A stretch of 55,033 nucleotides of DNA from Candidatus Saccharimonadales bacterium (lineage in GTDB: Bacteria; Patescibacteriota; Saccharimonadia; Saccharimonadales; JACDBH01), in the NCBI GenBank assembly GCA_049292975.1, contig JBATRZ010000062.1:1-55033 (forward strand). Reading direction: 5' to 3'. A program made the position numbers and the translations under genes. Position 1 is the first letter of the stretch, and every line of letters begins with the position of its first letter. This document shows, in pieces, positions 5,607-39,038 of the stretch. The notes under the pieces were generated by a model that saw nothing but the letters and a program-made list of their open reading frames with translations, did not search any database and was not told where the DNA came from.

Positions 5607-5621
5607 AAAGAGATTATTGAA

Positions 5622-5644
5622 TACAGATTACTGATTAGAGAATC
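5622..5644. repeat. Left inverted-repeat arm bracketing four-helix-bundle gene 1
   Basis: TACAGATTACTGATTAGAGAATC matches the reverse complement of 6016-6038 at 18 of 23 positions. It overlaps the stop codon. Confidence 0.6.
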
Positions 5645-6018
5645 TGCTTCACCCTCCTGTTCTGCTTATTAGCTTTTTGTAATCCTGCAAGTATTCTTTG
5701 TGCCTCATCAATTTGAAGCAATGTTTTTACACTTAGCTCTTCGCTTATGTAGCCAATGCCTTTTGCGATCAGGTACTGGCACTCGAGTTCTGTCAGAGAA
5801 CCTTTTGCTATCGCATAGAACTGATCTTTTTCCTTTGGACCAAATCTACCAAAACCTTCTGCAATATTTGAGCAAACAGACACCGCTGCTCTACGCATTT
5901 GACTTACCAAGCCGAATAACTCAGATTTTGGAAATTCTTTCGTTATCTCGTAAGTAAGTAGCGAAATTTCATAGGTCTTTTGCCATACGACCAAGTCTTT
6001 AAAGTTAGCTGCAGCCAT
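5635..6018 (-). CDS. Four helix bundle protein (23S rRNA intervening-sequence protein family)
   Basis: FKDLVVWQKTYEISLLTYEITKEFPKSELFGLVSQMRRAAVSVCSNIAEGFGR...AKGSLTELECQ is the hallmark of the PF05635/TIGR02436 family. GC content is lower than in the flanks. Confidence 0.85.
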   Translation of the reverse strand: MAAANFKDLVVWQKTYEISLLTYEITKEFPKSELFGLVSQMRRAAVSVCSNIAEGFGRFGPKEKDQFYAIAKGSLTELECQYLIAKGIGYISEELSVKTLLQIDEAQRILAGLQKANKQNRRVKQIL

Positions 6019-6038
6019 TCTGTAATCTCAAATCTGTA
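6016..6038. repeat. Right inverted-repeat arm bracketing four-helix-bundle gene 1
   Basis: CATTCTGTAATCTCAAATCTGTA is built from CTGTAAT/CTCAAAT heptamer words. It overlaps the start codon. Confidence 0.6.
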
Positions 6039-6052
6039 ATCTAGCTTCTTTA

Positions 6053-6256: not shown

Positions 6257-6266
6257 AAATTTACGC

Positions 6267-6349
6267 GGGGCTTATGAGAAAACCTAGGTTTTCTCATCGT
6301 GCCGGGCAGCGGCAAAGCCGCATGCTCGGACTGCTCTTTCCTAAGCCCC
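6267..6349. repeat. Structured repeat, copy B
   Basis: GGGGCTTA / ATGAGAAAACC-TA-GGTTTTCTCAT / CGTG-CCGGGCA-GCGGC-AAA-GCCGC-A-TGCTCGG-ACTGCTCTTTCC-TAAGCCCC. The upper stem differs from copy A by compensatory changes. Confidence 0.8.
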
Positions 6350-6410
6350 TCTCCTTTCTAAAGTTTGCTTATTAATGTAAATGGGTTTTAGGCAATTTTG
6401 GCTAGTGCAG

Positions 6411-6489
6411 CTGGGAGTCAAGGCCGAGCACAAAGTTTGAGCCGTATTGAACATACGGTGAAAACTTTTGACGCAGGCCTTGGCCCCAG
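6411..6489. other. 79-nt extended hairpin in the ssb-rpsR spacer
   Basis: CTGGGAGTCAAGGCC..CAAAGTTT..CCGTAT-TGAAC-ATACGG..AAACTTTTG..GGCCTTGGCCCCAG, with symmetric internal loops. Confidence 0.6.
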
Positions 6490-6508
6490 ATGTGCAGCCT
6501 AAAATTGA

Positions 6509-7059: not shown

Positions 7060-7176
7060 GCCAGAAATTTCACAGTTTTCATTTGGCATTTTACAATAAT
7101 TTTTCATTTTACATCTGTTATTGGAGTCATTTGTGAAATGTGAATTGTGAAATTAATGAAAATTGTAAATTGTTAC
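7060..7176. repeat. Gene-less inverted-repeat module of the TGTGAAA word family, downstream of rpsF
   Basis: The left part carries AAATTTCACAG...CATTTTACA...TTTTCATTTTACAT. The right part carries TTTGTGAAATGTGAATTGTGAAATTAATGAAAATTGTAAATTG. It shares the 15-mer TGTGAATTGTGAAAT and the 9-mer TGTAAATTG with 25459-25500. Confidence 0.75.
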
Positions 7177-7571: not shown

Positions 7572-7600
7572 TGTATCCTTTCTTCGAAAGAGAGGGGATT

Positions 7601-7668
7601 AAAGATTAGAGCTTACAGATTTTAGAATTTTCTTCTCTAATCTGTAATCAAAATTCTGTAATCTTACC
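7601..7668. repeat. Gene-less module of the CTGTAAT/GATTAGAG word family, upstream of rpsF
   Basis: AAAGATTAGAGCTTACAGATTTTAGAATTTTCTTCTCTAATCTGTAATCAAAATTCTGTAATCTT shares GATTAGAG, ATCTGTAATC and TCTGTAATCT with the flanks of gene 5635..6018. Confidence 0.75.
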
Positions 7669-16491: not shown

Positions 16492-17088
16492 TTATTTAAT
16501 TTTCTGTAATATGGCGGGGATGCGCGCGAAGTCATCTATTAGTGTCTGGCGCATGCCGCCGTTGTATAACGCTGCTGCGGGATGGAAAAGTGGTAAATAC
16601 ACTTGCCCTTTGTAGCGTTTGGGTTCGCCGTGAACCTGGTTGATTGAAGCCCCAGGCAAAAAGCAATTCATACTGTGACGTCCTAGTGTCACGACAATCT
16701 TAGGTTGAATTACCTCTAACTGTGCCTCCAAGTATGGCAGGAAAGCGGCTTTTTCGTCCGGGCTGGGGTCGCGGTTGTTAGGTGGCCGGTACTTGACGAT
16801 GTTGGTGATGTAAATGTCCTGGCGTTCCAGCCCAATGGTTGCGAGCATTTCGTTCAGGAACTTGCCTGCCGCACCCACAAACGGAATGCCCTGTTCGTCC
16901 TCGTTCTTGCCTGGTGCTTCACCGATGAACACAATGTCTGCATCAGGATTACCATCCCCAAACACGAGACGATTGGCCGTACGAGCCAAATCCGGGCAGA
17001 CATTCTGACGCAAAATCTCTTCTTTGATTTCATCAAGAAGCTTTTGCTTGGAATCTGGAATCTGGAATTTAGAATCTGGGTCAGCCAC
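16492..17088 (-). CDS. Uracil-DNA glycosylase, family 4
   Basis: VFGDGNPDADIVFIGEAPGKNEDEQGIPFVGAAGKFLNEML plus a C-terminal HPAAAL. GTG start at 17088 preceded by an AAGAGGGG Shine-Dalgarno sequence. Confidence 0.85.
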   Translation of the reverse strand: MADPDSKFQIPDSKQKLLDEIKEEILRQNVCPDLARTANRLVFGDGNPDADIVFIGEAPGKNEDEQGIPFVGAAGKFLNEMLATIGLERQDIYITNIVKYRPPNNRDPSPDEKAAFLPYLEAQLEVIQPKIVVTLGRHSMNCFLPGASINQVHGEPKRYKGQVYLPLFHPAAALYNGGMRQTLIDDFARIPAILQKIK

Positions 17089-17136
17089 CGTGCACCCCTC
17101 TTATTCCAAATTCCAGCTTCAAACTTCCAGCTTCTG
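17050..17136. repeat. Heptamer-word imperfect palindrome spanning the UDG start codon
   Basis: The left arm is GGAATCT GGAATCT GGAATTT AGAATCT GGG (17050-17080). The right arm is TTCCAAA TTCCAGC TTCAAAC TTCCAGC TTCTG (17104-17136). Confidence 0.8.
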
Positions 17137-24145: not shown

Positions 24146-25060
24146 CTAGATAGTAAGGAGGAAGTGCTGCACGGCGTCGTCGGCGTCTATCATCTCTGAT
24201 TTTAACCGCACGTCCAGCGCCAGTGCCCTGTCTACCAGATCCTTGACCTGTTTTTGCGACAAATTGTGTGTAAGATTGAGGGTTTTGTGCACAACGTATG
24301 GATTGAGCTTGGCGGTGCGGGCTATTTCGTCCGCGCCGTCGCTCTCGTTGAACTTGACCACCGCCAGCACATGCACCTGCCAGGCAATCATGCCCATGAT
24401 GGCCTGCGGCTCTACTGCTTGCTTGCGCTGGTCCTGGTACAGCTCCAGCACGCGCCGCTTGTTGCCCGCGAAGGCGGCATCTATCAGGTCGAACACACTG
24501 CTCCCCGGCAACGGTTCGGTAAGCAGGTCTATGCTGGCCTTCGTAACCTTGTCTTCATACAGCAGCAGCTTGTCCAGCTCGTTACTTAGGCTCATCTGAT
24601 TAGTGCCAAGCCGCGACACCATGTAGCTAGCATCCGTCATTGTCAGGCTGCCGCCGCGCGCCCTGGCCTCGCCTACCAGCCAGGCCGCCAGGCCGCGCTC
24701 GTCAAGCTCAGTGAATTCACGCAGCTCGGCACGCTTCTTGAGCGTCTTATACAGGCCCAGGCGCTTATCGAACTTGCGCTCGTTAATAATAAGATCGGTG
24801 GTATCAGCAACGGCATCCAGCAGCTTGCCGGGGTCATCGGCCAGCGCTTTGTTGGCGGCGGGACTTAAAAGCATTATCATCCGGCGCGGCGCTAAAAAAG
24901 GCAGGCTGGACACGCTCTCTAGCAGGCGGCCGAATTCCACATCACCAGCGTCAATTGTTTCCAGCCCAAAATCGCCATGCTCGGCTACGAAACCAGCCGT
25001 AAGCTTCTTCAGCTCAGCACTGCGGGCAAAATCATTACTGCCGGTTAAAACAAGTATCAT
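24146..25060 (-). CDS. holA: DNA polymerase III subunit delta
   Basis: The N-terminus MILVLTGSNDFARSAELKKL...LESVSSLPFLAPRRMIML and the overall 304-aa helical layout are typical of HolA. Confidence 0.8.
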   Translation of the reverse strand: MILVLTGSNDFARSAELKKLTAGFVAEHGDFGLETIDAGDVEFGRLLESVSSLPFLAPRRMIMLLSPAANKALADDPGKLLDAVADTTDLIINERKFDKRLGLYKTLKKRAELREFTELDERGLAAWLVGEARARGGSLTMTDASYMVSRLGTNQMSLSNELDKLLLYEDKVTKASIDLLTEPLPGSSVFDLIDAAFAGNKRRVLELYQDQRKQAVEPQAIMGMIAWQVHVLAVVKFNESDGADEIARTAKLNPYVVHKTLNLTHNLSQKQVKDLVDRALALDVRLKSEMIDADDAVQHFLLTI

Positions 25061-25064
25061 TTAT

Positions 25065-25087
25065 CAATTCACATTTCACATTTCACA
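25065..25087. repeat. Left inverted-repeat arm bracketing four-helix-bundle gene 2
   Basis: CAATTCACATTTCACATTTCACA is complementary to 25477-25499 at 22 of 23 positions, with a 17-nt perfect core. Confidence 0.9.
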
Positions 25088-25095
25088 TTAATGTA

Positions 25096-25458
25096 TCATT
25101 TGCCATTTTTCAGTGTAGAAATGATTTTCTGCAAGATGAAAAGCAGCTGGCTTACCTCATCTATTTCATTATGACAGGAAAAATTCTCATTGGCTTCCTG
25201 TAGGAGCCTTAGCCAGTAGCGCGTTTCTGCAGCTTCTTTCTTGGCTATGAATATTTTATTTCTAAAATCCAAGCGGGATGCGGCATTGTTTGCCTCTGTA
25301 TAATTGGCCCCGATACCGGTTGCAGAACGGATTAATTGGGTCTTGATGATTCTGTTCTCTGAGGTTTCTGGCAAAGGTTTCACAAGCCGTATGATCTGAA
25401 GCGAGAACTTAATTGTACGCTCCTCTAATTCTTTGGATCTGCCTTGTGAATTGTCCAT
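25096..25458 (-). CDS. Four helix bundle protein (23S rRNA intervening-sequence protein family)
   Basis: ...FSLQIIRLVKPLPETSENRIIKTQLIRSATGIGANYTEANNAASRLDFRNKIFIAKKEAAETRYWL fits the PF05635/TIGR02436 pattern. The gene is low-GC. Confidence 0.85.
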   Translation of the reverse strand: MDNSQGRSKELEERTIKFSLQIIRLVKPLPETSENRIIKTQLIRSATGIGANYTEANNAASRLDFRNKIFIAKKEAAETRYWLRLLQEANENFSCHNEIDEVSQLLFILQKIISTLKNGK

Positions 25459-25476
25459 TGTGAAATTATTGTGAAT

Positions 25477-25499
25477 TGTGAAATGTGAAATGTAAATTG
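25477..25499. repeat. Right inverted-repeat arm bracketing four-helix-bundle gene 2
   Basis: TGTGAAATGTGAAATGTAAATTG, made of heptamer words TGTGAAA. Confidence 0.9.
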
Positions 25500-25564
25500 C
25501 TCATGCTTCCTCTGCGAGAATTTTTACGGTGGGGTTGTAGCATGGGCGTATACTTGATTGCGAC

Positions 25565-27715
25565 ATGAGCTCCACCATCATCGTTTCCAACCGTCTGCCT
25601 GTAAGTGTCAAAAAAACCAAGAACGGCCTGGAATTCTTTACCAGTGCGGGCGGCCTAGCCACCGGTCTTGGGTCGTATGCCGCCCGGCGTGACAGTGTTT
25701 GGATTGGCTGGCCCGGTATCGTCTCTGACGGATTGAGTCTTAAGGAACTAAGAGAGATTACCGAGGGGTTAAAGAAGTACAAGTGCAGCCCCGTCTTCTT
25801 GACCCAAAAAGAAGTAAACGAATTCTATAGCGGCTACAGCAACGCCCTGCTTTGGCCATACTTTCATACCTTGCCTGCCGATAAAAAAGCCGGCAAGCAC
25901 TGGCGTGCCTATCAGGATATCAACGCCCGTTTTGCTGCCAGCGTGGAGGAAATCGCAGACCAGGACAGCAGCATCTGGGTGCATGATTACCAGCTGCTGC
26001 TGGTGCCCGCCCTGCTGCGCTTGCAGCGGCCGCGGGCGACGATTGGCTTTTTCTTGCACATACCGTTTCCGGCGGCGGAGCATTTTGCCGCCCTGCCCCA
26101 TGCCCGCGAGCTTATCCGCGGCATGCTGGGGGCCGATCTGGTTGGCTTTCACACCGATGCTTACACAAAAGATTTCCTAGATACCTGCAGCACGCTGCGT
26201 ATCGGCACGCCAGCCAAAGGCGGCCTGGCCACGCGCGGCCGGCCTGTGCGCGTGACCAGCTTTCCTATCGGCATAGATTATGACAAGTTCGCACTCTCCG
26301 GCCGCAGCCGCAGCGTCCAGATTGCACAGCGCAAGCTAGAACGCAAATACAAGGATGCCAGCGTCATCCTGACGGTAGACCGCCTTGATCCGACCAAGGG
26401 TTTTATTGAACGCCTGCAAGCCTACCGCACCATGCTGGAGCAAAGCCCAAAGTTGCATGGTAACGTCATCATGGTCATGCTGGCAGTGCCGTCACGCAGT
26501 GATGTAGAAGCTTACCGGAAGCTGAAGTCTCGGGTAGACAAACTGGTCCATGATATCAATGACGCGTACGGCACACGCAGCTGGCAACCGGTGGAGTACC
26601 GCTATGAATCAGTGGAGTTTGATGAGCTGGCTGCCCTGTACCGCGTAGCCGATGTCGCATTTGTGGCACCCTTGCGGGACGGCATGAACCTGGTTGCCAA
26701 AGAATTCGTAGCCAGCCAAAGCAGCCATAAAGGCATTCTGGTCTTAAGTGAAACGGCAGGTGCTGCCGAGGAACTGCGCGATGCCCTGCTGGTGAATCCC
26801 GGCAAACCCAAGGCTATGGTCCGCGCCCTTACCCGCGCCCTGGCAATGCCCAAATCCGAGGTGCGTACCCGCGTCAAAGCTATGCAGGACGTGCTGGCCG
26901 CCAACACCATCCACACCTGGGCCAATTCCTTCATGCGCACGCTCAACTACAACAATGTCCGCGGCCTGGCTAGGATAGAGGGCACCATGAAGCTGGCATT
27001 CGGAGTGGCCGGGCAGCGCCTGTTGCTGTTCGATTATGACGGCGTGCTGGTACCTTTCGCACCTACGCCAGGATTGGCCAAGCCGTCTGCCAAGCTCCGC
27101 AGCACGCTGGCCCGGCTGGCAAGCGCCGGTAATACCGATGTGGCTATCATCAGCGGCCGCGACGGCCCGACACTAGAAGCCTGGCTGGGCGATATCAACC
27201 TAACGCTCATCGCCGAACACGGTGCCAAGATTAAACTGCCGGCCGGGCCTTGGCAAGAACTCGCCGAAACCAGTGATAACTGGAAAAAGACAGTGCGGCC
27301 AGTGCTTGAACGCTACGCCCGCCAGACTCCAGGTGCTTTTGTCGAGGAAAAAACTTATTCGTTAGTTTGGCATTACCGCAATGCAGCACCCTATGCGGCT
27401 CAGAAAGCCATTGCCCGCATGCAGACCACCCTGCCTAGCCTGCTGAAGCCTTGCGGCATGCGCCTGTACCGCGGCAACATGATACTGGAGATCAAGAATC
27501 CTGCTATCAATAAGGGCAGCGCCGCTAAGCGGATGCTTACCCGGCATTATGATTTCATCATGGCCATCGGCGATGATTTTACGGACGAGGACATGTTTGC
27601 CGCCCTGCCATCGGACGCCTGGACAATAAAGGTCGGCCCGGGCCGCACGGCCGCCAAAATGCGTGCGCGTGACGTAAACCAGATCCGGGCGCTCCTCAAT
27701 AACCTGGCCGGATAG
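25565..27715 (+). CDS. otsA: Bifunctional trehalose-6-phosphate synthase / trehalose-6-phosphate phosphatase (OtsA-OtsB fusion)
   Basis: N-terminal GT20 domain (IIVSNRLPV...GGLATGL...VHDYQLLLVP...FFLHIPFP...DGMNLVAKEF) and a C-terminal HAD phosphatase (LLLFDYDGVLVP...GDDFTDEDMF). Confidence 0.9.
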   Translation: MSSTIIVSNRLPVSVKKTKNGLEFFTSAGGLATGLGSYAARRDSVWIGWPGIVSDGLSLKELREITEGLKKYKCSPVFLTQKEVNEFYSGYSNALLWPYFHTLPADKKAGKHWRAYQDINARFAASVEEIADQDSSIWVHDYQLLLVPALLRLQRPRATIGFFLHIPFPAAEHFAALPHARELIRGMLGADLVGFHTDAYTKDFLDTCSTLRIGTPAKGGLATRGRPVRVTSFPIGIDYDKFALSGRSRSVQIAQRKLERKYKDASVILTVDRLDPTKGFIERLQAYRTMLEQSPKLHGNVIMVMLAVPSRSDVEAYRKLKSRVDKLVHDINDAYGTRSWQPVEYRYESVEFDELAALYRVADVAFVAPLRDGMNLVAKEFVASQSSHKGILVLSETAGAAEELRDALLVNPGKPKAMVRALTRALAMPKSEVRTRVKAMQDVLAANTIHTWANSFMRTLNYNNVRGLARIEGTMKLAFGVAGQRLLLFDYDGVLVPFAPTPGLAKPSAKLRSTLARLASAGNTDVAIISGRDGPTLEAWLGDINLTLIAEHGAKIKLPAGPWQELAETSDNWKKTVRPVLERYARQTPGAFVEEKTYSLVWHYRNAAPYAAQKAIARMQTTLPSLLKPCGMRLYRGNMILEIKNPAINKGSAAKRMLTRHYDFIMAIGDDFTDEDMFAALPSDAWTIKVGPGRTAAKMRARDVNQIRALLNNLAG

Positions 27716-27742: not shown

Positions 27743-28705
27743 CTAGACAGACTGGCAACGGGGGCAAGTATGGGTGCCGCGGCCGGCAACTTTGGTTTTG
27801 ATAATAACCGTGCCGGGGTGGCGCGGGCAGTCCTTGCCCTCACGCCGGAACACACGGGCAAAATCTATGTAGCTCCCCTTCTTACCCTCGGCATTCACGT
27901 AATTCCTGTCCGTCGAACCGCCCTTTTCTATAGCTAATTCCAGTACTAGCCTAAGCTCAGAATATAGAATATAGATTTTGGATTTTGGAATATCGGCCAC
28001 TTTGCTTGCGGGGTGGATTTTGGCGCCCCAAAGTGATTCGTCGGCGTAGATATTGCCTACTCCGGCCAAGACAGTTTGATCGAGTAATGCTGCTTTGATG
28101 GACGTCTTTGCCCTTTTTTGCAAACGTTCGTAGAGAATTTTGGCGGTAAACTCATCACTCAGCGGCTCGGGCCCCACCTTCTTGAAGAAGTCTATATTTG
28201 GCACCTCAACAGTTGGCAACAGCCGCATCCAGCCAAACTTCCGCTGGTCATTAAAATACATGTGAGAGGACTGTCCTCTCACATCTTCGAGGTGGAGGGT
28301 TGCGCGGGTGGATTTGTCTGGCAATCTGCCGATGAGACTGTCGTTGGGATGCCCTGCCCCAAACCGCTCCTCTGGAGTAAAGTCCTTGGTCTTTAGTCTT
28401 CCGTCTTCAGTCTTGACTGGTGACCGCTGACTGGTGACCGCTGACTCCCGTTTACGCACGTAAACAAGCTGGCCCGTCATCTTCAAGTGAATTACCAGGC
28501 TGTAGCCAGAGTCTAAATCTATTATTAAAACTTTGGCACGACGGCGTACATCAATAATTTGTGCGCCAATTAAAAACTGCGCTACATCACCCGGCGCATT
28601 GGGAAAAGACTTGGGCCAATCAAAATCTACTGATTTGACCGTTTTGCCAATAATTAATTTATGCAAGCCACGCCGGACAGTCTCTACCTCTGGTAATTCA
28701 GGCAT
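27743..28705 (-). CDS. mutM: Formamidopyrimidine-DNA glycosylase (Fpg/MutM) with in-frame insertions
   Basis: MPELPEVETVRRGL, H2TH (LLDQTVLAGVGNIYADESLW), and a C-terminal zinc finger CPRH...CPRCQ. About 50 aa longer than E. coli Fpg. Confidence 0.9.
   Translation of the reverse strand: MPELPEVETVRRGLHKLIIGKTVKSVDFDWPKSFPNAPGDVAQFLIGAQIIDVRRRAKVLIIDLDSGYSLVIHLKMTGQLVYVRKRESAVTSQRSPVKTEDGRLKTKDFTPEERFGAGHPNDSLIGRLPDKSTRATLHLEDVRGQSSHMYFNDQRKFGWMRLLPTVEVPNIDFFKKVGPEPLSDEFTAKILYERLQKRAKTSIKAALLDQTVLAGVGNIYADESLWGAKIHPASKVADIPKSKIYILYSELRLVLELAIEKGGSTDRNYVNAEGKKGSYIDFARVFRREGKDCPRHPGTVIIKTKVAGRGTHTCPRCQSV
27959..27993. repeat. Heptamer tandem array in mutM coding sequence
   Basis: AGAATAT AGAATAT AGATTTT GGATTTT GGAATAT, encoding PKSKIYILYSE on the minus strand. 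Confidence 0.85.
28262..28282. repeat. 21-nt perfect palindrome GTGAGAGGAC-T-GTCCTCTCAC, in frame in mutM
   Basis: Read directly from the sequence. Encodes VRGQSSH. The flanking bases extend the palindrome to ATGTGAGAGGAC.GTCCTCTCACAT. Confidence 0.95.
28389..28445. repeat. Heptamer-periodic module, in frame in mutM
   Basis: GTCTTTA GTCTTCC GTCTTCA GTCTTGA C, then TGGTGAC CGCTGAC TGGTGAC CGCTGAC. 57 nt, equal to 19 codons. Confidence 0.85.
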
Positions 28706-36270: not shown

Positions 36271-39038
36271 ATCTCGCCCCAGTTTTTACCGCTATCAACA
36301 TCAACCTTCAGCTTAACTCCAAGCTCCGGATAGACATGTTCCATCGTTTCTTTCATCAGCTCGCCAACTTTTTCGGCATCGTCGGCATGGCATTCCACCA
36401 GGATACTGTCATGAATCTGCAACAACATGCGGGGCACGCCCGCAGGAGTGAGGAGTGAGGAGTGGGGAGTGGGTTTTTCAGACCCTTTCTTCTTACTTCT
36501 TTCTGCTTTCTCCGCAAAAGTTTGATCAAACTTTTGCTGCAACCGTACCATTGCTAATTTTGTGAGATCGGCCGCGCTGCCCTGGATAGGCATATTGATG
36601 GCCTGGCGGTAGGCGCCTTCGCGCACCATGAAATTGCTGGACTTTACGTCGGGCGTGGGGCGGCGGCGACCCAGTATCGTCTCGACATAGCCCTTCTTTA
36701 GGGCCTGTTCGCGCAAAGACTCGATGTATAGCTTTAATTTGGGACGGATCATAAAGTACTTGGCGATGAAATCGCGCGCCTCGGCAAAACTCATGCCCGT
36801 ACCCTCGGCCAGCCCGTGCGGCCCCTGGCCGTACATGATGCCAAAGTTCACGGCTTTGGCGTTATAGCGCATTTGTTTGGTGACTTCCTCGGGATCTATG
36901 TTCAGCACCGCGGCAGCAGTCAGCACATGGACGTCCTGGTCTTCGTTGAAGGCACGGATCATGTCTTCATCGCCGCTCAGCGCGGCAGCCAGACGGATTT
37001 CAAACTGTGAGTAGTCAGCGCTCACGAACACGTGGCCGGGCCGGGCCACAAAGCCGGTACGGATTTTTTTGCCAAGTTCAGTCCGAACGGGGATGTTCTG
37101 CAAATTTGGCTCGTTGCTGCTCAGGCGCCCGGTGGGGGCAATGGTCATCCGGAAGTTGGTGTGCACGCGGCCGTTTTCGTCCATCTGCTTTGGCAGCGTA
37201 TCGACATAGGTGCTCTTGAGCTTGGTGTACTCGCGGTATTGTTCGATACAGTCGATGATAGGGTGCAGCGCCCGTAGTTTGTTCAACACATCCGAGGCGG
37301 TGGAAAAATGCCCGGCTTTGCCCTTCTTTACGTTCCACGGCTGGCCTTCGTAGCCGTGCGTCAATTTGGCCTGCGTGCTTGAAGTTGGCAGCTGTAATTT
37401 CTCAAATAATATTTCGGACAATTGCCCCGGGCTGGAGATATTGAACTCTTGGTCGGCATGGCCGTAGATGGTCTGCTCGATGTCGCTGATTTTATCGGCC
37501 AGCTCATCGCCCATTTTGGCCAAGTAGCCGGCGTCCAGGCCAATGCCCTCGTATTCCATGCGCGCCAGAACCGGAATCACCGGCCACTCGACTTGGTCGC
37601 TGAGAGTAATCAGCTTGGTCAGCTCGCTCATACTCTCGGCCTGGTAATTCTGCAGGGCCTTAATGACAGCGACTAGCTCGCCTGCCCGTTTATGCAGCTC
37701 TTCTGAATTCAGCGCGTCAAGGCTGGCGGTTTCGTGGCCAAGGTCAGCAAAAGCCAGTTCGGTCAAAGTAGTAACGCGGCGGATGGAATTGATAAGGAAC
37801 GCGCCCACTAGTACATCATGACTAACTTTTGGTAATTCCACGCCAAGGTCCAGCAGCACCTTCAGACTGGCCTTAAGGTCGTAGCCTATGACATTCTTCA
37901 GCTCACCAAGCTTGGCAGCCACGGCTTTTTTATCCAGGGCCTTCAGGTCGAGTACATAGGCTGTCTTATCATCTGCTAGCACGATGGTTTCGGCACCGCG
38001 GCCATGTTGCCCGGACGCGTAGCTGTGCAGCACCATCTCGTCCTGTATCTTGATAGCCTTTAACGCGCCGTTCATGATGACCAGCTCTGTCTTCAGCGGT
38101 TCGATAGCGCCTGCCGTCACTTTATGCACGGGCGCTTCACTGTTATCCAGGACCTGCATGTACTCGGGCAGTTGGCGCAGCAGGCTGCGGAATTCCAGGT
38201 TGGTCAGCAGGCTCTTAAGCGCATGCACGTCCAGGTCGCGCGTGTCCGTCGCCTGAAGATCCAGGTCTACCGGCGCGTCATCCATTAGTAGCGCGACTTG
38301 CTTGCTTAAGTAGGCCGACTCTTTGCCCGCCTCAAGCTTTTTGCGGGTAGTTTCTTTGATTAACGCCAGGTTGTCATAGATGTTATCGAGCGTCTTGTAA
38401 TCCTGCAGCAGTTGCACGGCGGTCTTCTCGCCCACACCCGGCACACCTGGGATGTTATCGGAGCTGTCACCTTTGAGCGACTTCAAATCCAGGAATTGTT
38501 CTACCTCTATACCGTGTTTTTGTTCAAAATATTCAATGTCAAACCGTTCGATGTTGCTAAAGCCCTTTTTGAGCACATAGACGTGTGAATGCTGGCCGAT
38601 GCACTGCAGAGCGTCCAGATCACTGGTGATTAGCATAGTCTCCAGGCCGGCTTTATCCGCCTTCTTAGCCAGGGTACACATGATGTCATCGGCCTCGTAA
38701 TCATCCAGCTCATACAGGGGCCAGCTGAAGGCTTTGAGCAGGTCGTGCAGGATAGGAATCTGCACGTAGAAATCCGGCGGCGCAGGCTTGCGGCCGGCCT
38801 TGTACTGCGGGTACAGCTCTAGCCGTTTGCGGATGTTGGTCTTGGGCTTGTCCCAGGCCACAGCCACATAATCGGGCTTGAGCCTCTTCAGCAGCTCCAG
38901 TGACATGGCGGCAAAGCCGTAGACGCCGCCCGTAGGCGTACCGTCCTTGGTGCTGAGGTTGGGCATGGCATAATAGCCGCGGTAAAACACGCTCTTGCCA
39001 TCTATGATTGCCAGTTTCTTCCGAGCAGTATCAGCCAT
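36267..39038 (-). CDS. polA: DNA polymerase I
   Basis: 5'-nuclease domain (LAIIDGKSVFYRGYYA), then polymerase motifs DYSQFEIRLAA, RYNAKAVNFGIMYG and QIHDSILVE. ATG at 39038. Confidence 0.95.
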   Translation of the reverse strand: MADTARKKLAIIDGKSVFYRGYYAMPNLSTKDGTPTGGVYGFAAMSLELLKRLKPDYVAVAWDKPKTNIRKRLELYPQYKAGRKPAPPDFYVQIPILHDLLKAFSWPLYELDDYEADDIMCTLAKKADKAGLETMLITSDLDALQCIGQHSHVYVLKKGFSNIERFDIEYFEQKHGIEVEQFLDLKSLKGDSSDNIPGVPGVGEKTAVQLLQDYKTLDNIYDNLALIKETTRKKLEAGKESAYLSKQVALLMDDAPVDLDLQATDTRDLDVHALKSLLTNLEFRSLLRQLPEYMQVLDNSEAPVHKVTAGAIEPLKTELVIMNGALKAIKIQDEMVLHSYASGQHGRGAETIVLADDKTAYVLDLKALDKKAVAAKLGELKNVIGYDLKASLKVLLDLGVELPKVSHDVLVGAFLINSIRRVTTLTELAFADLGHETASLDALNSEELHKRAGELVAVIKALQNYQAESMSELTKLITLSDQVEWPVIPVLARMEYEGIGLDAGYLAKMGDELADKISDIEQTIYGHADQEFNISSPGQLSEILFEKLQLPTSSTQAKLTHGYEGQPWNVKKGKAGHFSTASDVLNKLRALHPIIDCIEQYREYTKLKSTYVDTLPKQMDENGRVHTNFRMTIAPTGRLSSNEPNLQNIPVRTELGKKIRTGFVARPGHVFVSADYSQFEIRLAAALSGDEDMIRAFNEDQDVHVLTAAAVLNIDPEEVTKQMRYNAKAVNFGIMYGQGPHGLAEGTGMSFAEARDFIAKYFMIRPKLKLYIESLREQALKKGYVETILGRRRPTPDVKSSNFMVREGAYRQAINMPIQGSAADLTKLAMVRLQQKFDQTFAEKAERSKKKGSEKPTPHSSLLTPAGVPRMLLQIHDSILVECHADDAEKVGELMKETMEHVYPELGVKLKVDVDSGKNWGEI
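36445..36513. repeat. Heptamer-word imperfect palindrome, in frame in polA
   Basis: GGAGTGA GGAGTGA GGAGTGG GGAGTGG GT-TTTTCAG-ACCCTTTC TTCTTAC TTCTTTC TGCTTTC TCC. 69 nt, equal to 23 codons. Confidence 0.85.

Follow-up and report, generated by a model that had tools for sequence, protein, structure and literature searches.

A PF05635 gene bracketed by inverted heptamer arrays in a Saccharibacteria otsAB-holA spacer, and the recurrence of this arrangement across many phyla

Genes and features at the otsAB-holA locus

The DNA considered here is a 55,033-nucleotide stretch (contig JBATRZ010000062.1 of assembly GCA_049292975.1; "the window" denotes this whole stretch) from a Saccharibacteria genome (TM7, Saccharimonadales), and the element in question is a compact cassette in which a gene for a small four-helix-bundle protein of the PF05635 (S23p) family lies between two inverted arrays of 7-nt words. 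The cassette occupies the spacer between holA and a divergent fused otsA-otsB gene, and because a related unit lies elsewhere in the window it is referred to as cassette 2 (protein IVP2) where the two need to be told apart. The genes and features of the locus are as follows.

24146 to 25060, minus strand: holA (DNA polymerase III delta; PF06144 and PF21694), co-directional with the cassette and directly downstream of it
25061 to 25095, minus strand: 3' array, TACATTAA TGTGAAA TGTGAAA TGTGAAT TG ATAA, running from the stop codon to 1 nt short of the holA ATG
25065 to 25087, minus strand: 3' arm of the inverted repeat, ending 4 nt short of the holA ATG
25096 to 25458, minus strand: PF05635 / TIGR02436 four-helix-bundle gene ("23S rRNA intervening-sequence protein", S23p family), identified by family models
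25459 to 25499, minus strand: 5' array, 41 nt of heptamer words (CAATTTA CATTTCA CATTTCA CAATTCA CAATAAT TTCACA) up to the ATG
25468 to 25496, minus strand: promoter-like pair within the 5' array (TTTACA, 17 nt, CACAAT), from a consensus scan
25477 to 25499, minus strand: 5' arm of the 22/23 inverted repeat, the outermost 23 nt of the 5' array
25500 to 25564, no strand assigned: apparent leftover of the ancestral divergent otsAB/holA spacer, by eye against the empty spacers of four related loci (L003, L007, L008 and L014)
25565 to 27715, plus strand: fused trehalose-6-phosphate synthase/phosphatase gene otsA-otsB (PF00982 and PF02358), the divergent neighbour

An earlier note on this DNA, made from the sequence alone, had described two arms complementary at 22 of 23 positions with a 17-nt perfect core, enclosing 389 nt that consist largely of a low-GC open reading frame (ORF) and lying between holA and otsA-otsB, and a repeat finder together with the ORF call bears out each of these points. 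The 23-nt arms (CAATTCACATTTCACATTTCACA at 25065-25087 and TGTGAAATGTGAAATGTAAATTG at 25477-25499) are 96% complementary, with a single mismatch that leaves the 17-nt core, and a weaker extension takes them to 62 nt at 71% (25058-25119 and 25438-25499). The ORF inside the arms begins with ATG, encodes 120 amino acids, and has a GC content of 0.416 compared with 0.565 for holA and 0.522 for the window. Both arms are tandem arrays of period 7. The window contains seven strong lag-7 arrays where shuffled sequences give none, lags of 5, 6, 8 and 9 give 0-1, and the inverted-repeat score of the cassette flanks (z = 12.4) was matched by 0 of 200 shuffles. The holA product aligns over its full length, from residue 1, with those of relatives, which identify the organism as a Candidatus Saccharibacteria, and the neighbourhood as a whole comprises rpsT, holA, otsAB and fpg. 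No rRNA, tRNA or any Rfam family was found at the arms or elsewhere in the window. An intrinsic terminator or ordinary regulatory hairpin was considered and set aside: a terminator scan was negative at the arms, which are A/T-rich and 389 nt apart.

The encoded protein

Membership of the cassette protein in PF05635 is established (E = 6.5e-17; 62.1 bits against a cut-off of 33.8), and the protein also matches TIGR02436, "four helix bundle protein", with 81.7 bits against a cut-off of 24. An AlphaFold2 model built with 25 homologs (predicted local distance difference test score, 94.2) places helices at residues 3-26, 33-57, 62-89 and 96-118, and its best Foldseek match is 2RLD ("S23 ribosomal protein family", BT_0352; template modelling score 0.78-0.83), followed by 2GSC (XCC0516) and then by Avd of diversity-generating retroelements (DGRs). 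The fold, an up-and-down bundle that agrees with the solved members of PF05635, is established, and the four-helix-bundle assignment of the earlier note is thereby upheld. At the protein level, no difference from the TIGR02436/PF05635 structures 2RLD and 2GSC was apparent. The protein is basic (isoelectric point 9.4), and by analogy with these two solved homologs, which have five chains each, it is probably a pentamer. Homolog searches for the S23p / four-helix-bundle family returned 1,984 and 7,965 sequences.

When the window ORF is compared with the orthologous cassettes of two related loci (L017 and L018), the proportion of nonsynonymous differences (pN) is 0.12-0.22, compared with a synonymous proportion (pS) of ~0.82, which is saturated. 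Between the window and L018, the pN of the cassette protein equals that of holA, at 0.218 each. Purifying selection on the cassette protein is thus shown to be as strong as on holA, and since pN is low and equal to that of holA while pS is saturated, the protein is evidently functional and has long been co-resident with holA in the window's clade. No transposase or catalytic domain was found in the cassette protein with Pfam and TIGR models, and neither of the two cassette proteins of the window matched a PADLOC defence-system model.

The bracket as a property of the gene family

The flanks of related genes were surveyed in two sets of loci. The first comprised 80 fetched loci from Saccharibacteria and other members of the candidate phyla radiation (CPR), with homologs 40-63% identical; flank statistics were calculated over 88 loci, and 92 other genes in the same loci served as controls. 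Nearly all of these loci carry words of the type xxxxxCA upstream of the gene and complementary TGxxxxx words downstream, the word families being specific to clades. Flank pairing has a median z of 4.7 in the 88 CPR loci, 58% of which reach p <= 0.01, as opposed to -0.06 and 5% for the controls, and flank self-identity stands out at lag 7 (0.50/0.47) and lag 14 (0.43/0.41) against 0.25-0.33 at other lags. The second, broader set was seeded with XCC0516 and consisted of 80 loci, 77 of which were scored for flanks, from Proteobacteria, Bacteroidota, Planctomycetota, Acidobacteriota, Nitrospirota, Clostridia, Omnitrophota and others, together with one archaeal metagenome-assembled genome. There the inverted z is 5.3 (above 3 in 64% of loci) and the direct z is 0.3 (above 3 in 11.7%), and lag 7 scores best in 47 upstream and 55 downstream flanks out of 77 each. 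Of the flanks of PF05635 genes, 34-42% carry strong lag-7 arrays, compared with 3-13% of control flanks. Two inverted heptamer arrays with lineage-specific words are thus shown to be a hallmark of the PF05635 gene family across many phyla, and the proposal that the bracket belongs to the gene family and not to one repeat sequence is sustained well beyond the two cassettes on which it was based.

Individual loci illustrate the range of words and settings (e.g., a Nostoc plasmid, L100, with (GGGAGTA)x7 ... (TCCCTAC)x5 around a gene between nrdB and nrdA; a Geminocystis plasmid, with an AAAAGGG / CCCTTTT bracket; a Riemerella plasmid, with AAGGTTC / AACCTTG; and Stanieria, where inverted arrays likewise bracket the gene). 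A Picosynechococcus plasmid (L103) has an 8-nt word and a gene between cas10 and cmr3, and a Pseudanabaena plasmid (L101), with its gene between cas6 and cas4, has direct and not inverted arrays, (GCTAAAA)x13 and (GCCAAAA)x10. In Xanthomonas and Pseudoxanthomonas the gene occupies the accB-accC spacer, with GGGAAT(C/A) heptamers on both sides and a 3' array that ends at the accC ATG. Array length varies from ~3 to more than 13 units across loci, and because of this wide variation a rule of one pentamer for five heptamers is unsupported. In 78 of 86 loci (91%) the gene that follows the cassette runs in the same direction as the cassette gene, at a median gap of 28 nt.

Several further observations concern the way in which these cassettes sit among their neighbours. 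PF05635 genes are found within the operons cas6-cas4, cas10-cmr3 and nrdB-nrdA, and the reported "association" of the family with cas genes may be just a reflection of such insertions. At loci with a GT4 glycosyltransferase gene downstream (L033, L038, L039, L042, L049 and others), inspection by eye indicates that the last 3' heptamer, AATGAAAAAT, gives that gene its in-frame start and first codons (M K N ...); heptamers that contain ATG yield starts in all three frames. In loci L020-L054, a short hairpin that contains GC and has a 3-4-nt loop stands immediately before the first heptamer of many cassettes (e.g., GCCTAGCC-CGAA-GGGCTAGC and GTTAACC-AAA-GGTTAAC); it may serve as a terminator for the gene upstream or constitute a third component of the unit. 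Decay is evident in some cassettes: in Xanthomonas vasicola (L108, 1001-1400) the reading frame appears to change near the 3' end, and in L213 (2993-3404) two overlapping ORFs are present.

State of the site in relatives

The genes holA, otsAB and fpg and the cassette ORF were mapped onto 16 related loci, and the mapping gave three site states. The otsAB-holA spacer is empty and 53-75 bp long in seven genomes (L003, L005-L009 and L014), with -10-like and Shine-Dalgarno-like motifs immediately before the holA ATG. Another four genomes have no otsAB, and in these fpg abuts holA; the fused otsA-otsB gene itself thus varies in presence among related Saccharibacteria (L001, L010, L012 and L013 compared with L003-L009). 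In L002 and L004 a PF05635 gene is present at the holA site in the same orientation, 42-45% identical to that of the window and flanked by other words. Closer homologs (L017, 83% identical; L018, 69%) also occupy the otsAB-holA site, and in the wider survey a cassette lies directly upstream of holA in 11 loci that represent several protein clades and different words. Identity within the site (0.48) is about the same as identity between sites (0.46), and cassettes of the window's own clade are also found upstream of comF-like, GT4 and other genes. Because empty and occupied states coexist and several clades are found at one site, the site is polymorphic and has received a cassette on more than one occasion. 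The empty sites that the earlier note had suggested looking for do exist, together with sites that hold cassettes of other clades, and the unit thus behaves as a cassette.

At the occupied loci of the window's clade the layout, in gene orientation, is: old spacer / CAATTTACA...41 nt heptamer words...CA ATG-ORF-TGA-heptamer words...AAATTG-4 nt-holA ATG, so that the cassette termini read CAATTT...AAATTG. Unlike the empty spacers, the occupied loci have no Shine-Dalgarno-like motif before the holA ATG. In the window, the minus strand of 25500-25564 appears still to resemble the 5' end of holA (TAAAAAT ... GAGGAAGC ATG AG) where it abuts the cassette start. Comparison of the junctions by eye revealed no convincing target-site duplication among these highly diverged relatives; ATGA/ATAA occurs at both junctions in some loci, inconsistently. 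The window element is an intervening-sequence (IVS)-type PF05635 cassette in the spacer of protein genes, polymorphic among relatives.

Cassette 1 and hairpins that lack a gene

A first cassette of the same architecture had been reported in the earlier note. The gene does exist, with a PF05635 match and words different from those of cassette 2; its inverted repeat is weaker (CTGTAAT-type words, z = 2.4). The window also contains hairpins built from heptamer words that enclose no gene.

5607 to 6046, minus strand: cassette 1, with its PF05635 gene at 5635-6018 (E = 1.9e-35), between rpsR and the next gene; AGATTACAGA / TCTGTAATC-type words
7066 to 7175, no strand assigned: gene-less hairpin in the rpsF-ssb spacer, with cassette-2 words TTTCACA ... 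TGTGAAA and a 25-nt stretch in which 9-mers match the cassette-2 arms
7597 to 7663, no strand assigned: gene-less hairpin upstream of rpsF, with cassette-1 words GATTAGA/CTTACAGA ... TCTGTAATC
17047 to 17134, no strand assigned: gene-less hairpin with TGGAATC/ATTCCAG words, resembling those around a gene of the cassette-1 protein type (IVP1) in L087

The two cassette proteins are 20% identical and belong to different subfamilies, that of cassette 1 (IVP1) having a weak bAvd-like match and 2GSC as its closest PDB entry. A phmmer search of the cassette-2 protein against all window ORFs found no second copy, cassette 1 having surfaced only via Pfam. Each of the two paralogs has its own words and a nearby gene-less hairpin in those words. 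Because the hairpins at 7066-7175 and 7597-7663 carry the same words without a gene, the gene is not the only context of the heptamer repeats.

The rpsF-ssb-rpsR region was surveyed in 80 related loci. In at least 14 genomes the rpsF-ssb spacer contains heptamer hairpins, of many word families in all, and those of L217 and L236 keep the order "arm-ATG-few codons"; an intact PF05635 gene was found in this spacer in 0 of the 80 relatives. It is suggested by these patterns, not decisively, that the gene-less hairpin in the rpsF-ssb spacer could be a decayed cassette. The ssb-rpsR spacer contains an intact gene of the cassette-1 type in L198, L201 and L205 and a copy split into two ORFs in L213, and is otherwise as short as 14 nt among relatives. 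Paralogs from the same genome share 40-63% identity, and their nearest relatives are usually the copies at the same site in other genomes; since these paralogs are old, there is no sign of recent bursts of transposition.

Two further features were noted in the window. Its own ssb-rpsR spacer (6262-6508, 256 nt) contains a palindrome, ATGAGAAAACCTAGGTTTTCTCAT, with no heptamer array and no Rfam match, and a palindrome similar to ATGAGAAAACCTAGGTTTTCTCAT occurs in L217 in the rpsF-ssb spacer, just upstream of ssb; the region is a candidate leader or regulatory RNA. Period-7 tandem arrays are also present within long ORFs (36441-36513, 27958-27991 and 28386-28446), with (AGGAGTG)x4 and (CTTTCTT)x4 in an ORF of 924 amino acids and AGAATAT/GATTTTG and GTCTTCA/TGACTGG inside fpg. 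Coding sequence with a 7-nt period is unusual.

Evidence on an RNA or a DNA role of the arms

The sense transcript of 25050-25510 is predicted to form a 23-bp terminal stem in both the minimum free energy and the centroid folds (z = -3.3), in which the single arm mismatch becomes a U·G pair. By its length, this stem could serve as a generic RNase III substrate. If pairing in RNA were the selected feature, mismatches between the arms should favour those that pair as G·U in the sense strand. In the CPR set (64-70 loci), 70 mismatches could pair as G·U in the sense strand and 81 only in the antisense, or 67 and 81 (two score thresholds), and in 48 phylum-wide loci the counts are 54 and 54. Because there is no sense-strand excess of G·U, selection on RNA pairing is unsupported here. 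The suggestion of an RNase III-type stem made in the earlier note thus stands in part: the stem is predicted to form and has a precedent in rRNA (PMC4990558), whereas pairing of the RNA as the feature under selection finds no support.

The sequence of the arms is shown to be conserved beyond what pairing needs. The 5' array is identical at 37 of 41 positions between the window and L018 (by eye), though pS is ~0.82, and the 41-nt layout is kept in 20 Saccharibacteria loci, to all of which gCAaTTTACATTTatCATTTaaCAATTCACAATtATTTaaCA-ATG is common. TTTACA is found at the 17-nt spacing in 18 of the 20 loci having CACAAT. Because this -10-like hexamer ends 9 nt before the cassette ATG, the mRNA of the cassette would be leaderless or nearly so, and would then not include the 5' arm.

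Comparison with known systems

The closest known counterparts are the IVSs of 23S rRNA in Coxiella and Leptospira. In Coxiella burnetii the 23S rRNA IVS is 428 nt long, with a 28-bp terminal stem that encloses an S23p (PF05635) ORF (Warrier et al. 2016, PMC4990558); three tandem GACAGAT heptamers, whose number differs among strains, immediately precede the start codon, and RNase III cuts have been mapped in the stem (PMC4990558). Like these insertions, the window cassette measures ~430-440 nt, has a PF05635 ORF that fills the loop of a terminal stem and is in the sense of the host transcript, and carries copy-variable heptamers before the start codon. Unlike them, it is not inserted in an rRNA helix (9, 25 or 45) and occupies instead a site in the spacer between otsAB and holA, 4 nt short of a protein start codon, and its protein is under purifying selection whereas Coxiella S23p is thought to be unexpressed and decaying. 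The presence of PF05635 ORFs in rRNA insertions of CPR bacteria has already been noted in the literature. In the literature searched, no description of the flanking heptamer arrays of PF05635 members outside rRNA was found, nor any link between PF05635/S23p and heptamer arrays other than the description of the Coxiella IVS (PMC4990558).

Avd of the DGRs (4DWL, 8UB7) shares the fold family and is a basic pentameric barrel that binds structured RNA. Assignment of the cassette proteins to this group was tested and rejected: the model NF033474 gave no match for IVP2 and 26 bits for IVP1 against a cut-off of 80, and no reverse transcriptase, template repeat or variable repeat was found near the cassette.

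Among repeat-associated systems, REPIN/RAYT combines repetitive extragenic palindromic (REP) elements with an HUH-type tyrosine transposase whose gene is flanked by inverted copies of the repeat that are also dispersed as intergenic hairpin doublets. As in the window, the gene has inverted repeat copies on either side and further copies scattered through its genome. RAYT is an HUH enzyme, whereas no catalytic motif is known for PF05635, and the tandem heptamers differ from the single 20-35-nt palindrome of a REPIN. Membership in REPIN/RAYT was thus rejected, the arrangement of repeats being present and the HUH enzyme absent. Compared with transposons and MITEs (miniature transposable elements with inverted repeats), the cassette has inverted termini, and there is no transposase, no similar second copy in the window and no convincing duplication. 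The Omega repressor of the Inc18 plasmid pSM19035 is a small oligomer that binds arrays of a 7-bp word, direct or inverted, overlapping promoters; as a ribbon-helix-helix dimer of a fold unrelated to PF05635, it offers an analogy only.

Heptamer repeats described elsewhere include the short tandemly repeated repetitive (STRR) sequences of cyanobacteria. Each Xanthomonas genome contains ~186 GGGAATC arrays, 70-75 of them as convergent inverted pairs, and Nostoc has GGGGA(T/C)T heptamers, with heptanucleotides also mentioned for Calothrix PCC 7601 (Rehm 2015, PMC4692102). TAACTGA arrays in Beggiatoaceae end just before start codons (MacGregor 2015, PMC4679880). In many bacteria no class of long simple sequence repeats (SSRs) is more over-represented than heptamers, a proposed cause of which is slippage (PMC4692102, PMC4679880). 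These SSRs resemble the cassette arrays in that they are intergenic and of variable length; many form convergent inverted pairs, and many end just before a start codon. They differ in that mostly no gene lies between the arrays, and the two studies make no connection to PF05635 (PMC4692102, PMC4679880). The Xanthomonas word GGGAATC is the word that flanks the XCC0516-type PF05635 gene.

Function of the arrays and alternative explanations

The explanation that we rank highest, with a confidence somewhat below an even chance, is that the encoded oligomer recognises the arrays as its cognate sites, that the 5' array also serves as a promoter, and that RNase III-cleavable stems are a consequence of the arrangement. 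It is favoured because arm mismatches show no bias of G·U over A·C, because arm sequence is conserved beyond pairing, and because gene-less hairpins with the same words lie nearby. The basic, probably pentameric, four-helix-bundle protein would recognise the two arrays sequence-specifically and symmetrically, most simply on duplex DNA; the 5' array would carry the cassette promoter, from which a near-leaderless mRNA would run on into holA, and the protein would autoregulate its own gene and modulate holA directly downstream. Because the arrays are inverted, a read-through transcript would fold into a 23-bp stem around the ORF, which RNase III could cut, as shown for the rRNA-borne Coxiella member, making insertion within transcription units tolerable. 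The gene-less hairpins of the same words would be extra sites or decayed copies, and the direct arrays of Pseudanabaena and of several loci in the phylum-wide set are taken to reflect recognition rather than mere pairing. Several points weigh against this explanation. Array lengths that range so widely do not suit one pentamer for every five words, and the only characterised homolog, Avd, binds a reverse transcriptase and RNA stem-loops, largely electrostatically, and not heptamer arrays. The authors of the Coxiella study hold that S23p is not made and that the RNA is what matters (PMC4990558). A sigma-70-like pair is correctly placed upstream of the ATG in only 34 of the 88 CPR loci, and the wobble test may be underpowered if slippage or conversion homogenises the arms.

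The next alternative, possible and rather unlikely in our view, starts from the RNA: the selected feature would be the stem in the host transcript, from which RNase III would excise the cassette RNA to leave a holA mRNA with a short A/U-rich leader, the heptamers would only ease regeneration of the stem in several registers, and the role of the protein would be unrelated or dispensable. The anatomy shared with the Coxiella IVS, from the length and stem to the heptamers before the S23p start and the mapped cuts, is what would be expected, as are the stem with one U·G pair in both predicted folds, the co-orientation of the cassette with a downstream gene whose start codon it abuts, and the predominance of inverted over direct arrangement. 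The absence of a sense-strand G·U excess, the conservation of the arms beyond pairing, the direct arrays at some loci and the strong purifying selection on the protein argue otherwise, and a promoter-like motif within the 5' arm would drop that arm from the cassette's own transcript. Less probable again is a mobile element in the manner of REPIN/RAYT or a MITE, in which the arrays would be the ends, PF05635 an end-binding factor dependent on host catalysis, and the hairpins mobilised copies. The polymorphic site occupied by different clades, the spread of one clade over holA, comF-like, GT4 and other sites, the CAATTT...AAATTG termini, the gene-less hairpins of many word families (some with the start of an ORF), the low GC content and the occurrence in Xanthomonas of one or few genes beside so many arrays could all be accommodated in this way. 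Yet there is neither a catalytic domain nor a match to transposase or PADLOC models, no clear target-site duplication was seen by eye, the paralogs within a genome are old and mostly nearest to same-site copies elsewhere, and in the window's clade the cassette protein has diverged as much as holA, as would be expected after a long vertical residence. Least probable, by a wide measure, is a neutral origin in which heptamer microsatellites arising by polymerase slippage pile up in AT-rich spacers beside a horizontally acquired gene, the arrays and their inversion having no function. The general over-representation of heptamers, for which slippage has been proposed, and the variation in copy number between strains and relatives agree with such an origin, while control genes from the loci surveyed have no inverted flanks and, for the most part, no arrays, one word recurs inverted on both sides of the gene in most loci of many phyla, and the arms are conserved where synonymous sites are saturated. 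The recognition of the arrays by the encoded protein accordingly ranks above a stem selected in RNA, a mobile element and a neutral by-product, in that order.

A broader proposal, which is more speculative than the function suggested for the arrays of the window, is that PF05635 proteins may be the trans-acting partners of bacterial heptamer repeats, each paralog recognising its own 7-nt word. On this doubtful but testable extension, the gene would always be packed between inverted arrays of its word, and scattered arrays would be further sites or non-autonomous offspring. The scattered repeats might then include Xanthomonas GGGAATC, heptamers of the STRR type and the Saccharibacteria hairpins, and the rRNA IVS might be a unit that landed in an rRNA helix.

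Significance

The S23p family is very large and has had solved structures since 2006-2007, and DGRs are the sole setting in which a function is known. Across ~165 loci from many phyla, the genes of this family come with two inverted, lineage-specific heptamer arrays. If the arrays are recognition sites, each protein would bind its own heptamer array sequence-specifically, and RNase III would process read-through transcripts. For the organism itself, the cassette means that holA, an essential gene, has lost its Shine-Dalgarno-like context to a 440-bp insertion and is expressed from behind it. For the family, the arrangement ties together three puzzles, namely the function of S23p proteins, the origin of rRNA IVSs and the excess of heptamer repeats in bacteria, the last of these by way of the Xanthomonas word that flanks the XCC0516-type gene.

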